A stretch of DNA of 64,000 nucleotides, from assembly GCA_030265395.1 (NCBI GenBank), contig JARFYF010000012.1:15872032-15936031 (forward strand), in the 5' to 3' direction. Of the stretch, positions 5,005 to 57,780 are shown piece by piece. The position numbers were made by a program, and so were the translations under genes. The notes under the pieces are model-generated. The model was not told the DNA's origin. It saw only the letters and a program-made list of their open reading frames with translations, and searched no databases. Origin of the DNA: Rhina ancylostomus (lineage: Eukaryota). How positions within the stretch are numbered: position 1 is the stretch's first letter; the number at the start of each line of letters is the position of its first letter.

Positions 5005-5660
5005 ATGACTTGCACTTCCAATCTAATATACAGCATTCTCCATTCACGTTGTGGTCTACCAAATACACACTGGGTGATCACTTTGCGGAGCATTTGCATT
5101 TAGTCCACATGAACAACCTGACTTTCTTATTTGCCAACCACTTTAATTCTCCATCCCACTTTCACTCTGAAGCTGTCTGTGGCCTGCTGCATTGCTACAA
5201 TGGGACTCAACTCAAGTTTCCAACTGGGGCATATTGCAGCCTTGCAGACTCAATGTTAAATTTTCCTACTTTAGGTAACTTGCTCTATCTGTCTTTGTCA
5301 GAACTGGCCATTTCTGTCAGTCATCCATCTATGATTTTTGGCTTAGTTTTTCTTTCTCCATTAGCATAGGCTGATCTTCTGAGCATTTCCCACATTAGTA
5401 ACACATGACACAAAGAAGCATAATGTGCTTCTGATTGCCACCTTAACCCATGTGGTCACATCCGATTAGAGATTTTGCCTTTTATCCAATATGTTCCTCC
5501 CACATTTTCTCTGTGCCTAAAACTAACTTGTTTTCTCTTTTCCCCAGTTCTGCTGAAGGGTCAGGACCTGAAATGTCAATTCTGTTTCTCTTTCCACAGA
5601 TGTTACCTGACCTCCTGTGTTTTCAGCGTTTTCAGCCCTCTGCACCTGGTCCATATAAAT
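5005..5660 (+). mobile_element. Penelope-like element 3' fragment: degenerate GIY-YIG endonuclease, 3'UTR and terminal repeat
   Basis: Translation LGDHFAEHLHLVH...ANHFNSPSH...GLLHC matches the PLE endonuclease C-terminus (RLGDRFAEH, VA.HFNS). A pyrimidine-rich UTR follows, then CTGCTGAAGGGTCAGGACCTGAAATGTC, a hammerhead-like terminal repeat. Confidence 0.85.
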
Positions 5661-18990: not shown

Positions 18991-19130
18991 GAGAGGGAAA
19001 CAATGAATGTTTCAGATATGAGACCCTTTGTCAGAACTCATGTTAACTCTGTTTCTCTTTCCATAGATGCCTGTCCTGCTGAGGGCTTCCAGCATTTTCT
19101 GTTTTTATCTCAGGTTTTCAGCATCTGCAG
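18991..19130. mobile_element. Partial inverted pair of Penelope terminal repeats
   Basis: Reverse copy (atgtttcagatatgagaccctttgtcagaac) abuts a forward copy (atgttaactctgtttctctttccatagatgc...cagcatctgcag). Confidence 0.7.
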
Positions 19131-20929
19131 GCTTGTTGATTCGCACTGAAAAGTGGTGTTTGGATCAATAAATGTTACATGACAACGTTTCCAGGGTAAT
19201 ATCCAGTCAAAGCTGACAATCCCTCTTCATTCCTGACCTTAGTTCTGTTGCAATATGTGTTCTGTTCTGGGGCCTGTTATCCTCAAGGCCTCTCTATTGG
19301 TATAATCTGACTCTGTCAATAGTTATGAAAGGACCTTCTTTTGACTCCCAAGAATTTAGCTGAAGACAGGACAGTTTTAGGCAAGTGTATCTAATCATTT
19401 ACACCAAGTACACACATCTGCACCCTGTGAAGTTTTGGCCATATACCATCTTTCCCTACCGTTGATTTATTTTCTTCAAGACCACTTTGAGAGGTAGACA
19501 TGCTCCTTTATAAACTATTGATTGGTTTATGGAAGAAACCTTCCACTGCAAAAATGGTAGTAAATCTTGTCAGTAATCTTTAATTTTCAAGACAGAAATA
19601 AACTCAAGAACATGGCAATGAATCTGGAAAGAAATAACATGTAACTGCAGTTCACAATAAAAAACAATGAAATAAGCTCAGTGGATTTCTTATTGAAAAA
19701 GTAACAATCCTCTTTTGTTTTGTTAACAAGATAAACAAGAAATGAATTTAGACTGCTGTTTGAGTAATTATAATGGCCAATTTGTTGCTGGAGACTTTTG
19801 TTCTCTGGTCCATTTTTGACCCATTACATCAAATAGGTCCTAATTAACAGATGGCGCTGATTGATTAGGGTTAAGCAGCTTCAGGCAATGTTGGAAAGCA
19901 ACCACTGCTTTGATACCTTTAAATCTTATTTTTAAAATTGAAAACTGATGTTAAAAGACCGTATTCAGAAATACACACTTAGCTCAGTCTATTGGGTCTA
20001 TGTTGTACGTGTCAAACAACAAGCTGCTTAGATCTTTACATGGTGTTGTGCTAGACTAATATTACTTTATGTTCTCTTGCCAGAAGTGCGGCAAGCTCTG
20101 CAAAATTAATAATCCTAAATTGTCTTTCGCTGCTTGAATGCAACAAAAGATTTTTTATAAACCTGACACGCATTCAAAAAAATACTTTCATATTTGGTAA
20201 TAATGTAAAACTTTCTGTAATGGTAATATATTTTTCTTCCTTCTTAACCGCATATATAAATAGAAAAAATTAAATGTAGGTATGTGGTAAGTTAAATGAG
20301 TATAGTAGGAGCCAGCTTCTGAGCTGAACTGACAGGTTAGCTGAAGATGAATGCACTAAAGCTGTCTGAGAACTTGGCTTCTATGTCAAAGCTAATTGTT
20401 GGGTAAATGTCTCACTTTATGACATGGAAATTAAATATAGCACTATCATTTTTAAATAACTTCTGAATTTAGCAAAATTACAGAAAGCCATGATTTTGAT
20501 GGAGTAAAGAACAGAGCTGATTGGAGTTACTTGGGATCAAGATGTACCTTGTTATAAAGCGACAATTGTCTCTAAATTGTGGCCTCAGCTTTAACACTGC
20601 TGCCACTTCCCTTACTATGCACATATTCAGTGAAAGCCAGGAATTGGGGGAGTTAAAATGTATACTTCTCACTTCTTTCCTGCCCAGCTGGCTAACAAGG
20701 ACACACAACAGAATGGTAATGAAATACTAAGTAAAATACTTGTACTGTCGGGTTCCAATATACTAAGGGAGTTAAAACCAATTCCTGTGGAACAAATGTT
20801 TTAACTGAGTACAAATTCTTTCTGTAATACTCCATGCAATCCGATACACTTCCTTCCATTATTTTCCATTATTTGAATAATTTGGTACATTGGCAAGTTG
20901 AAAGAGAATGGAAAGTTTACTATTTAGAC

Positions 20930-22021: not shown

Positions 22022-22138
22022 AACTGCAGATGCTGGAAATCTGAAAATAAAAATGATGGAAATACTGAGCAGGTAAGATGGCATCTATGGAAAAGGAAAA
22101 AGAGTTAATGTTCCAAGTTGAAGACCCTTGATTAGACC
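22022..22138 (-). mobile_element. Solo Penelope terminal repeat
   Basis: actgcagatgctggaaatctg...gcatctatggaaaagg...gttaatgttccaagttgaagacccttgattagacc. Other solo copies at about 37346-37436 and 47700-47778. Confidence 0.75.
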
Positions 22139-25641: not shown

Positions 25642-26471
25642 GCCTGGATTTTGTGGTTAGCAGCCACTGGTCTTGAAGTAAGCTCTCAGTAAACATCTGA
25701 TAATCTCTGCGGCATTGAGCTTCCCAGTTCCAAAGTCAGTCACTGTTACGCATCAGTTGTTGGCAGCCCCTGACAGTAGCAGCCAATCAAACTTAAAGAA
25801 TTCATCCAGACAGCAAACCAGGAAGTAAAAAAAAACAATTTTTTCAAGATTTTGCACAGGAGATTAAGGTTGAAACTGAAATATAAATTATTTTTAAATT
25901 TAATATAATTTAAATTGTAAAATGTTCATCCATATTTTTCAAGATTTTGCACATGAGATTAAGGTTGAAACTGAAATATAAATTATTTTAAAACTTAAGA
26001 TAATTTAAATTTTAAAATGTTCATCCATATGGTTAGCAGTTGACTCTTAAAAGCCTCCTCAGTTCAAGGGCAATTAAAGATGGATAATCAATGCTGGCAT
26101 TACCAGTAATGTCTACATCCCATGAATGATTATATACTTGAAGAATACCTACATACATAAACTAGTTATTTACAGGTAGAGTTTGCCGAGCATGAACTAA
26201 AAGAGAACTTTATTAAAAGCTCATGCAACAAAACCTAATATTTTAGGTTGGTTTACTGCTGGGATAGTTTGTAAAAATCTGAAGTTTTCAATAACTTCAC
26301 TAATTCAGGAACACTATGTTGCCGAAGGTTTTAATTAAAACAATGAATCCTGTGGATCAGCAGGGAATCATCAACGGCACTTTTGGTTTCCTGCATTGAA
26401 CTGCACATGTGCATAGCCGAGAAGCTGCTGGCAGTTTTACATCGAGCAACCGCAAACTATAAAATTCAGAC
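25642..26471. mobile_element. Putative non-autonomous DNA transposon (MITE-like)
   Basis: Degenerate terminal inverted repeats: gcctggattttgtgg versus ctataaaattcagac (11/15 match). AT-rich interior. Confidence 0.4.
25841..26030. repeat. 95-bp x2 tandem duplication
   Basis: Units 25841-25935 and 25936-26030 (ttttcaagattttgcac...atgttcatccatat) with few substitutions. Confidence 0.95.
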
Positions 26472-35472: not shown

Positions 35473-38400
35473 CTATATAGACTTTCTATGGTGTGGTATT
35501 TGTTTACATCAACTTATTTAAATCACAGTGCTGAAACTTCAAAGGTTTATCATATATTAATGAGTGTATCAGGTAAGGATTTAATAACAAGGGTTTAANN
35601 NNNNNNNNNNNNNNNNNNNNNNNNNNNNNNNNNNNNNNNNNNNNNNNNNNNNNNNNNNNNNNNNNNNNNNNNNNNNNNNNNNNNNNNNNNNNNNNNNNNN
35701 NNNTGTACTTCTGCTTTCCTGACCCTGGAGCTCTGTTGTCAAGCAGAAACTTTTGACCCAAAGATGTGCTTAATGCTGTGTGGATGTCAAGTTATACCCA
35801 ATATTCAATCAATCTTGATGGAAAATGTTCATATTTAAATTAGATGTAGTTCAGCATAAATCAGCATCAATAAACAGGGCCCAAGGAAATGCTAAACTTA
35901 CAGTTGTATATTTCTTCTTTGAGCAATAAAATTTAAGATGCAACTCTTATTCATTATTCATGTGCAACAGGTGCATGCAATTGAAGAGAGTTTTCAACTT
36001 TTAATCTGGCATACATATACCATAAACATATACCAAAAGGGAAGAAGATATGATGTAATGTAGGTCCCAGTAAGGATTTCTGTTTTGGTAAAAGGCTTGA
36101 GTAATTGTAATTGCATTTAAAAGAACAGAAAGGTAACTTTGTTTCCTTCTGCTGAGAATCTGATTATGACATTGAATCATCCCATGAACAAAGCTGCTTG
36201 GAGAACTCTCCCATTTGGAAGTTGGTGGATTCATCAGNNNNNNNNNNNNNNNNNNNNNNNNNNNNNNNNNNNNNNNNNNNNNNNNNNNNNNNNNNNNNNN
36301 NNNNNNNNNNNNNNNNNNNNNNNNNNNNNNNNNNNNNNNNNNNNNNNNNNNNNNNNNNNNNNNNNNNNNNNNNNNNNNNNNNNNNNNNNNNNNNNNNNNN
36401 NNNNNNNNNNNNNNNNNNNNNNNNNNNNNNNNNNNNNNNNNNNNNNNNNNNNNNNNNNNNNNNNNNNNNNNNNNNNNNNNNNNNNNNNNNNNNNNNNNNN
36501 NNNNNNNNNNNNNNNNNNNNNNNNNNNNNNNNNNNNNNNNNNNNNNNNNNNNNNNNNNNNNNNNNNNNNNNNNNNNNNNNNNNNNNNNNNNNNNNNNNNN
36601 NNNNNNNNNNNNNNNNNNNNNNNNNNNNNNNNNNNNNNNNNCCACTGGTCTGCTCCTTCCCCACTTTTCCATCCACTGCCAGCTGTTTCCAAACTTCTGT
36701 TCTTAATCCATATTATTTTATTTCTCCTGCAAATTCTTTTTTCTCCTGTCTAAATGTTCCTAGTACGCTCCCAAAAAAGATTATCCATTTAGAAAAAGAG
36801 GCAGAATCCATTTCCTGCTGGTGAGTCTTTACCTTCCATTAGATATATGTGACTAATGTGTTCTGAAAGCCCCAGGAACTCAGATGACAGAGTCATGATT
36901 AGTAGCAATGATTTATCTCCATAAGCTCTCTGTAGCTGAGGCAATGAAAGGTATAATCACTGCATTTTGTAATAATGGTGGAAAGACATTTGGTAACAGG
37001 AAATCATAATTTTTTTGTTGCCCCCTGCAGTGCAGAGGTTTCATGTTGGAAGTTAAAAGTATTTCACATGCTTCTTAGAATCTTAAGACACTATTGTTCA
37101 GGATTATGATTCATCCGCCCAGGGCCAGCCATCCTGCTGCAGTTTTTCTTCTTGTGTATTTTCTTACGAATATTGCTTAACTTTAATTTATTAGACAGGA
37201 AGAACAACTGGAGATGTAGGAGTGAAAATTTTGGCTGTCACCCATTTTAGGTCTTGATCGAACACTTGCAAATAGATATGGATTTGCCTTCCAAGAATCC
37301 AGGTAATATATGGGGCTTGTGAATCTTAATTAACTGATAGGTTAGCGAAAAACAAACTGCTGGAGGAACTCAGCAGGTCAGGCAGCATCTGTGGAGGGAA
37401 ATAGTTGACATTTTGGGTTGAGACACTTCATCTGGAATATCTGAAAGGATAAGTGGCTGCTGTAGATTACTCCTTAGTGTAGGTTAATGGCAAGAAGAAT
37501 CACAGTTGATAAATATGCAAGAGAGAATAAGTTGCAAGGGTAAAGGAAAATGAGGAAACGAGAAATAGAGCCAATACGATTGCTCCCCTGGGAGCTGGCA
37601 TGGACTTGATGAGCCAAATGGCCTCCTTCTGTGTCATTAAAAGTAAAAGATCAGTACTTACTGCAGAACCACAACCTGTGTAATAATTTCCATGCGGTAA
37701 AACATTCAAAGGTGCTTTACAGGAGAGAGTTTTGAACAAAATTTGATATTAAACCAATGAAAGGTTTTGGGACATGTGACTAAAAGCTTGCTTAATATGG
37801 TAGGTTTTAAGCTGTCTTAAATTAGGAGACAGGGTTAGTGTGAAAAGATTCAGCAACAAAATTCCACAGATCAGGGGTTCAGCTGAACCAGCAAGGCATT
37901 GGCTTTTCACTAATATTGCAAAGTATCAATAGCAGATTTTACTTTAAAAATAGTTGATGCATTCATCAAGAGTAAGCTTCTTACTTCCAGACTCTAAAAC
38001 ATTTTGTTTCAGTATAATTAGCAGACTGGAAATGTTAAAGCTCATTCAGTTGGCCTGCAAACAGCAGCCTGTCTTGTCTGATAGTGTTTATTGCAGGCAA
38101 GGATAACCTTTTAAGTAGACGTGATTTTTGGCACAAGAACTGCTTGAACTAAGACCGAGAGGAAATCTGAAAGCTCGAATGTTGATTTTACTCAAATATG
38201 GTGGTTTCTGATAGCGTCTTTACTGCTATTTACCTCTTTAAAATTATGCTAATATTCAGAAATACTAGTCAGGAAAGTTAAAGCTTTTGCAAACGAGGAG
38301 GCTAACACTTGATAATTCTGTTTTAATTCCCTATTCACAAGACCATTACATCCCGCATGGCCCGTGCATTGCGTTCTTTTGGGAATAAAATTGGGGAAGA

Positions 38401-55200: not shown

Positions 55201-55512
55201 AGCCAAGTTCCTAGTATAAGGGCACTTCTTGTAGGATGATGCCAAGGAGGTGTCTGTAGGATCAAGAGCACCCTCTCCTCATGCCTGCACTGCAGTCAAA
55301 TGCTCCTGCTGGGTCTAAATGTTAAAGTCATACTCATCAAAAATCAAAGGATTCCCACTGTTATGACTGAGCTTCTTTAAGCTTCTGGCAGTGAGAAGTA
55401 ATGTGTCAGCAGGGGCTGCCTGAAAAGTGAGGTTTCTGGGTGACTTTGACTGTGTCGGTTGTATGGAAGGTTTTCTAAGGTCTCAGATGTGAATGAGGAA
55501 CTTGAGGAGTTG

Positions 55513-55795
55513 GAGATACAAGAGACTGCAGATGCTGGAATCTGGACCAACAGACAAAGCACGGGAGGGACTCAGTGGGTCAGGCAGCATCTATGGAGGG
55601 AAATGGACAGTTGACGTCCTGGGTTGGGACCCTTCCTCTGGACTGAAAGGTAGAGAGGAGATACTGGCTATCTCCCCTCTATCTTTCAGTCCAGATGAAG
55701 GGTCTCAATCCGAAATGTTGACCGTCCATTTCCCTTCATAGATGATGTCTGACCCGNNNNNCCGCTGAGTTCCTCCAGTGCTTTGTGTGTTGTAC
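55513..55795. mobile_element. Penelope-derived palindromic element (inverted terminal repeats)
   Basis: Arms 55548-55663 and 55669-55792 are reverse complements around a 5-nt loop. Flanked by cttgaggagttg and cttgaagaattg (10/12 direct repeat). Confidence 0.9.
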
Positions 55796-56751
55796 CTTGA
55801 AGAATTGTGGCTCTCACAGATATTTTTCATGTGAGAAGTGTTGAAGCCTGATTTTGGGTGCCACCCTTTCATAGATGTCGTTCTCCTTATATTTGCTCAC
55901 TCCTCTTAGACAGGGAACCACTTCTCTATTTGCAAGGTTTCATCTGGCATTTCTGGCCACAGAAATCATCTGGGGGTGTGATGATGGGACCCCTAATCTA
56001 GGTCAGTTTACTTGAAGTTTATTTTACAGCCGTCGGTCTATGACAGCAGGACAGAGCTGTCTGGCCTTTTAATCAATGCTGGTGTGGAGCTCTCAGCAAA
56101 AGTAAAAGCTATATGTATACTCTGTGAGTGAACAGTGGCTGTTGTTATTTTGACCAATGTGGTTGGAAAACTTGCTGTTGACAACTTATTGTTGTTGCTA
56201 CTTGGGCAGACTAATTTGCCAGAAAATTAAGGCCATGCAAGAAAATTAAGGTGCAAGAAAATCTCACCCCATATTAAGACTATTAACATTAAGACACCCC
56301 ATATTAATAAGATATTAACCCATATTAACCCTTAGTGTTAACTTGCATCAAACCAAGCAAAGGTTTGTTTGATATCTTGTTAATGCAAGTTTCATCTGTG
56401 AAATATCCATTTTTCTTATATTTTACAGACAAATTTCTAAGCTAAAATCTTTTCCTTATGTTGGGGGCCTGAATATTTTGCTGAATAAATTGTTCTTAAG
56501 TTTTCTACTTAATGACATGGCAAAGAAATCTTGTGAAATAATTACAAGAAGAATGTTTCAACTTTGTACATACTGCTAACAGAAGCAGGTTAAGATTTGA
56601 CATCAAGGCAGTGGGATCAATATGACTAACCTCATCTTAAATTACCCTTACCCGATATTTTCCAGGTAGAGAGAATTCAAATTAAGAAATGACATTACAA
56701 CATCACGTTGAAAAAGTTACATCAGTGAAGAAGAGCAGAATGCTTTCTTAC

Positions 56752-57554: not shown

Positions 57555-57780
57555 AATGTGGAACGAAAACCGAAAATGCCAGAGACACCCAGCAGGTCAC
57601 AGAGCTTCTGTGAAAAAGGAAAAAAGTCAGCATTTTAGGTCAATGAGCCTTCGCTAATTCTGATACAAAGGATCATGAACCTGAAATGTTGATTCTATTT
57701 CTTTCTCCACAGATGCTGCCTGACCTGTTCAGTATTTCTGCCATTTTTGGTCTTTGTTTCAGATTTCTACCAGCTGTAGT
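57555..57780. mobile_element. Older Penelope-derived palindromic element
   Basis: cagcaggtca...gtcagcattttaggtc mirrors acctgaaatgttgatt...tgacctgttc, with the centre near 57655. Confidence 0.75.

Follow-up and report, generated by a model that had tools for sequence, protein, structure and literature searches.

The hairpin at positions 55548-55792 of the window (the stretch of 64,000 nucleotides of Rhina ancylostomus DNA that was analyzed) is very probably the remnant of one old insertion by an EN+ Penelope-like element (PLE), in which two 5′-truncated 3′ ends lie head to head. It was likely built on site from a master lineage whose hammerhead ribozyme carries a U4A core (CAGA rather than CUGA). 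The locus itself is ordinary debris, and the subfamily is the useful part. This U4A lineage went through a burst of thousands of insertions, and we entertain, with some doubt, the idea that it reveals one of two things. The first is that U4A is an active but so far undescribed core variant within the minimal dimeric hammerhead. The second is that the lineage offers genome-scale natural evidence that insertion can proceed without ribozyme cleavage, while long-term survival of a lineage needs it.

Structure, age and present state of the hairpin

A reading made from the sequence alone had described a hairpin with a ctggc loop at 55664-55668, a hammerhead-like core motif in each arm, and a 12-bp flanking repeat, and all of these features are located where that reading had placed them. 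The inner arms (55577-55663 and 55669-55755) match at 72 of 87 positions and differ at 15, and the outer arms (55548-55575 and 55765-55792) match at 25 of 28. The palindrome spans 245 bp with arms of 116 and 124 nt, although the latter value is inflated by about 8 because the right arm contains a 5-N gap with a 3-base CCG overlap. No contig spanning this gap (55757-55761) was found. The predicted fold has a free energy of -140.4 kcal/mol (z -14.3), and none of 200 shuffled sequences is equally stable. The complete insert of 283 bp can be divided into a minus-strand copy with a 35-nt tail and a plus-strand copy that lacks this tail, with the following features:

55501..55512, plus strand: left copy of the target-site duplication (TSD), 10/12 matching the right copy; its last base is possibly the end of the element
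55513..55547, minus strand: PLE 3′ tail of 35 nt, present in the left arm only, without a mirror partner
55548..55663, minus strand: tailed copy, a pseudo-LTR fragment that consists of a 5′-truncated PLE 3′ end; over 55513-55663, 88% to L010, a natural copy
55608..55645, minus strand: decayed minimal hammerhead; U4A at 55639, AGGA for GAAA at 55620-55617
55661..55663, no strand: inversion junction with a 3-nt microhomology (ATA) readable in both arms; family copies extend upstream of 55661
55661..55792, plus strand: tail-less copy, a 5′-truncated PLE 3′ end that includes the "loop" (55664-55668) and ends at the tail-less boundary; 82% to L010
55687..55724, plus strand: decayed minimal hammerhead; stem I 55687-91/55720-24 (one mismatch), core 55692-98, U4A at 55693, stem II 55700-11, GAAA 55712-15, expected cut after 55719 (U; the family has C)
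55757..55761, no strand: 5-N gap with CCG on either side, likely an assembly pad; 3 extra letters are absent from family copies and a few reads
55796..55807, plus strand: right copy of the TSD, after 3 spacer bases (55793-55795)

The "loop" is element sequence that forms the start of the plus-strand copy, because non-palindromic copies read through it into upstream sequence. Family-wide, 3′ ends fall into two groups located about 35 nt apart, one tail-less and one tailed. Ends corresponding to 55511-55513 recur in thousands of other copies whose flanks are unrelated, although these were counted as loose ends.

The direct repeat that bounds the insert matches at 10 of 12 positions, and its score of 6 sits exactly at the threshold used for a TSD. 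The match rises to 11 of 12 in the contig of a related organism (A>G at 55804). Scores of at least 6, with repeats of 12-16 bp, were reached by 9 of 17 evaluable palindromes compared with 6 of 323 evaluable swapped-flank controls, and by 15 of 71 simple copies compared with 15 of 419 controls. The earlier proposal that the palindrome inserted as one unit is borne out, since one TSD frames the whole palindrome. These duplications of about 12-16 bp are longer than the 8-10 bp quoted for rotifer elements.

In related organism B, one contig spans the left junction and shows 14 changes. In related organism C, contigs enter the element from both flanks, by 27 and 24 nt, which is below our bar for bridging. 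The insertion therefore likely predates those splits, and the locus is likely one old, decayed insertion that has undergone neutral decay since. The minus core has lost GAAA, whereas the plus core carries a stem I mismatch and a U at the cut site. Forcing the plus-strand hammerhead helices yields -90.3 kcal/mol rather than the -140.4 kcal/mol of the hairpin, a cost of 50 kcal/mol. Both local ribozymes have decayed, and the hairpin would bury them. The locus is predicted to be inert. The sequence-only reading had proposed a hammerhead core on both strands, and both core strings do read as it described. That wording is overstated, because the minus core lacks GAAA, the plus core is further changed, and the hairpin would bury either one.

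In three RNA sequencing runs of related organism C (X22-X24, 18-24% of each run read), no reads mapped to the unique flanks. Reads from the family as a whole occurred in both directions in these runs, numbering 8,324, 10,865 and 18,775. No pile of read starts or ends was observed at the family in the three runs, and fragmented libraries need not show one. We also rejected the possibility that the hairpin is a miRNA precursor: Rfam models matched it below their gathering scores, and such models score any long hairpin.

Junctions across the family and the origin of the palindrome

Our sample for family junctions comprised 139 copies on contig C1, picked in genome order (70 CAGA and 69 CTGA, with one assembly duplicate dropped). 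An adjacent inverted partner is present for 26 of these copies and absent for 80, and the remaining 33 have a gap there. Junction offsets among the 26 pairs are scattered, spanning -364 to 0 in one arm and -125 to +99 in the other. Outer ends could be scored in 20 of the 26 pairs: exactly one tail is present in 17, no tail in three, and two tails in none. This one-tail bias corresponds to a binomial p of about 0.001, assuming a tail probability of 0.43 per arm, and it constrains models of PLE integration.

A plausible route to this arrangement begins with a staggered cut by the GIY-YIG nuclease of the element, with the two nicks 12 bp apart. Both cut ends would then prime reverse transcription on element RNA, with the U4A master lineage serving as template. 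One priming event would begin at the distal start and thus include the tail, and the other would begin about 35 nt further in and yield a copy without it. Synthesis of both cDNAs would cease some 25-30 nt upstream of the hammerhead, the two would be joined through the 3-nt microhomology, and fill-in would then create the TSD. A PLE protein has been shown to cut and extend both strands, and its two start sites delimit the tail (PMC11167929). Furthermore, the layout is a published one for EN+ PLE insertions, including Pen2a_Av and others (PMC3846280; PMC8557442), which share with our locus a head-to-head inverted 5′-truncated copy, a one-sided tail of 30-40 bp, a TSD, and microhomology at the 5′ junction. 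The locus differs from them in that its arms are only 130-150 nt long, such that no ORF lies between.

The inverted arm might instead have formed by fold-back, or self-priming, of one cDNA or antisense RNA, rather than by two primings. Such self-priming, with an antisense template, was put forward to explain palindromes of Penelope elements in rotifers (PMC3846280), and microhomology is common at junctions in the family, for example between the stem I strands in L258/L259. We nevertheless judge fold-back to be unlikely because it predicts near-equal arm offsets, whereas in many pairs the offsets lie tens of nucleotides apart or further (the arms in the window differ by only about 5). Fold-back alone also does not explain why exactly one tail is found in 17 of 20 pairs. 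Another alternative, suggested by the sequence-only reading, is that the palindrome belongs to a non-autonomous, non-coding hairpin family that is transcribed and re-inserted whole by PLE proteins. Consistent with this, a single TSD surrounds the entire palindrome, one other locus (L127) has the same junction and tail side, and PLE proteins are able to work in trans on whatever sequence lies between pseudo-LTRs (PMC3846280). The junctions tell against it. A genome-wide search for the 19-nt junction gave 3 exact matches, 10 with one mismatch, and 60 with up to 2 mismatches. Among 30 loci inspected, including all 13 best, the window is the only one whose arms meet directly. A short duplication follows the junction in L127, the only other locus with this junction, and because the junction rests on a 3-nt microhomology, occasional recurrence is expected. 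The best whole-unit matches included 10 other readable palindromes, and each has its own junction.

A count of copies with the same loop had been proposed as a check. Among the loci inspected, only L127 shares the junction of the window, and junctions differ from one locus to the next. Most copies are single and non-inverted, long copies reach PLE coding sequence, and the three RNA runs of the related organism gave no reads on unique flanks. A self-propagating hairpin family is therefore largely refuted, and we regard it as very improbable. Animal non-LTR retrozymes (PMC7229834; bioRxiv 10.64898/2026.07.22.740005) are also short, non-coding, hammerhead-bearing, and related to PLEs. However, retrozymes as described there consist of tandem units arrayed head to tail, each of which has its own complete hammerhead, and the locus, a single unit made of a head-to-head pair of decayed PLE ends, was rejected as a member of this class.

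Some inversion junctions (L258/L259, L278, and L279) use the self-complementary strands of stem I as microhomology. As a result, the cleavage site looks like the beginning of one arm and the 5′ edge of the ribozyme like the beginning of the other, which confounds any claim that a junction marks cleavage. In addition, about 35 of 105 ungapped copies in the contig C1 sample start within 1 base of the 5′ strand of stem I, a count that is censored because the sampling motif begins there. Upstream flanks are unrelated in many of these copies.

Penelope identity of the family

A search of the 2.2-Gb genome returned 4,526 first-look candidates, of which 40 were scored. When read on the hammerhead strand, the copies are the 3′ ends of one retroelement family. 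Proceeding upstream, long copies of the CAGA lineage contain a pyrimidine-rich stretch and then decayed coding sequence that corresponds to the reverse transcriptase (RT) thumb and GIY-YIG regions. A 179-aa frame in L236 has a match (BLASTP E 3e-11) in this genome to a PLE protein whose GIY-YIG domain was verified with Pfam. The GIY-YIG endonuclease was detected by tblastn upstream of the 3′ pseudo-LTR in seven of eight extended loci (E≤0.004), which are longer copies of the subfamily located outside the window. RT-thumb pieces match at E 6e-7, and the thumb region is present in L236 and L237 only. The matches are confined to the thumb, and the copies are truncated before the RT core. The longest of the eight extended loci stops at the thumb, and neither a full-length copy nor an RT catalytic core was found. 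GIY-YIG was not matched when five decayed fragments of the family were scanned directly with Pfam, and longer proteins, searched for homologues at 1e-10, contained none.

One frame, in L240, ends in a GIY-YIG remnant whose motif includes two cysteines, and it has an intact CX4CxxC linker upstream of this remnant, as seen in Neptune/Nematis PLEs, for which a CX2-5CxxC linker before the endonuclease is part of the motif definition (PMC8557442). The linker has decayed in L236 and L237. From these sequence features, the element appears to be an EN+ Penelope-like element, putatively of Neptune/Nematis type, with the clade label drawn from motifs because the RT core is absent. The suspected Penelope origin and minimal type I hammerhead anatomy are both upheld by the coding remnants in long copies and by the stems of the family majority.

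Two other sets of PLE sequences were encountered. The loci L093 and L095 (G000 contigs C27946 and C12343) carry a different PLE family whose 3′ end enters degenerate (CCCTAA)n telomeric repeats at both loci. L095 has a 377-aa open frame with an RT C-terminus and a Pfam GIY-YIG domain, and this family is possibly an EN+ PLE that targets telomeric repeats. The loci L092 and L094 (G000 contigs C39495 and C23785) are AT-rich PLE frames on very small contigs. They are unlike the other copies of the host and may be contamination.

The U4A subfamily and its ribozyme

Exact matches to the 19-nt core number 3,724 for CAGA, 5,468 for CTGA, and 531 for CCGA or CGGA genome-wide. With 3,724 copies, the A of CAGA is not the outcome of random decay. 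The previous suggestion that it is a subfamily trait is well founded, because thousands of copies carry it and diagnostic sites on either side are linked to it. Copies were also sampled with a downstream motif and judged by eye. On the TCCA background, 100 matches listed included 56 with A, 20 with T, 3 with C or G, and 21 whose core could not be read, whereas on the TTTA background A was seen in only 2-3 of 100 matches listed. We compared 232 distinct segments, a set partly selected by likeness to the window. Copies with A/TCCA (n=112) and T/TCCA (n=23) differ at 3 of 238 sites, and U4A is the only fixed difference. Either group differs from T/TTTA (n=42) at 13-22 sites. Non-CpG divergence is 13.3% for A/TCCA, 12.6% for T/TCCA, and 7.8% for T/TTTA. 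These comparisons indicate that U4A arose in one branch of the older lineage and was amplified, and that the CUGA lineage was active later.

The canonical core (CUGANGA...GAAA...UH) is absent, with U4A present in both arms of the locus and in the subfamily, and with GAAA lost on the minus arm. The family majority has GAAA, and it also has stems I and II and the palindromic stem III around the core, in which the plus arm of our locus has its stem I mismatch. The stems are alike in all three lineages except for one A>G that keeps a U-G pair, and the 200 matches listed are nearly all from one family and so provide no stem variation for a covariation comparison. The same anatomy of a short stem I, an extra base before stem II, and a palindromic 2-nt stem III is known from the minimal type I hammerheads of metazoan PLE pseudo-LTRs (PMC4209133). 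That 2014 study also reported opposite-strand hammerhead pairs located 100-700 bp apart and a U3-A8 core variant. In contrast to the hammerheads described there, U4A is fixed here in a high-copy subfamily, and U4A is not mentioned in the portion of that paper available to us. Our literature searches found nothing relevant on a U4A or CAGAUGA hammerhead, although Lunse et al. 2016 on PLE hammerhead variants may list U4A, and nothing on PLE hammerheads in sharks or elasmobranchs. The palindrome architecture is already known, and the U4A core variant at the level of a subfamily is probably undescribed.

Rfam hammerhead models gave no match up to an E value of 10. Monomer folds of both 43-nt motifs were no better than shuffles (z +0.39 and +0.54), which is uninformative because such a result is expected for minimal hammerheads. 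Among the copies listed, those starting within 2 nt of the cut site, judged by eye, number about 5-6 of 100 for TCCA and 0-1 of 100 for CUGA/TTTA. At least 2 of the 5-6 TCCA starts are explained by stem I microhomology. The copy-start footprint provides no in vivo cleavage signal in either direction. In a pairwise mutagenesis study, activity was low whenever one or two positions of the CUGA turn were changed, except for a C3-G8 swap (PMC9901934). For U4A itself, the literature consulted yielded no cleavage rate, nor did it yield one in a minimal dimeric or protein-assisted hammerhead. A survey of natural core variants names U4C, which keeps some activity, and U4A is not named in the accessible part of that survey (PMC3088659). 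With U4A predicted to lower self-cleavage and thousands of insertions present, cleavage is likely not needed for insertion. Most likely, then, the subfamily would carry a weakened ribozyme in a lineage that inserts regardless. This agrees with the finding that a PLE protein in vitro performs insertion normally with a dead hammerhead (PMC11167929).

Perhaps U4A is instead a working natural core variant that cleaves as a dimer or with the help of PLE protein, in which case insertion would occur in the same way and the lineage would be fully functional. All hammerhead positions other than U4A are majority-intact in the 112 CAGA copies, as a working ribozyme would give, and 785 genomic matches have CAGANGA and GAAACGTC at the right spacing. 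Other natural core variants, including U4C, are partly active (PMC3088659), and the PAc hammerhead, which cleaves only with protein (PMC11167929), is a precedent for such dependence. However, only 3 of 238 sites separate the CAGA lineage from its CUGA sister, so it has had little time for drift, and its intact stems are no sign of selection. No change that compensates for U4A is apparent at N7, which is U in nearly all of the 100 CAGA matches listed (by eye). The low activity of CUGA-turn mutants (PMC9901934) and the presence of CUGA in the younger subfamily likewise weigh against cleavage by U4A, and we consider a working U4A ribozyme improbable compared with the weakened one.

One in vitro study has reported that cleavage is dispensable for insertion (PMC11167929). 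The near-isogenic U4 and A4 sister lineages, each with many copies, allow a direct test of what PLE hammerheads do. Specifically, the pair permits cleavage rate, truncation pattern, and inversion rate to be compared with and without the canonical core.

Other elements are present in the same window. A second copy of the CAGA subfamily, which is single and tail-less, is located on the minus strand at 37360-37448 (84% to L010). Older and more diverged PLE 3′-end fragments from related families are found at 5545-5621, 19043-19133, 22023-22129, and 57668-57780. In addition, a 95-bp AT-rich unit at 25840-26030 is duplicated in tandem, with the two units being 95% identical.
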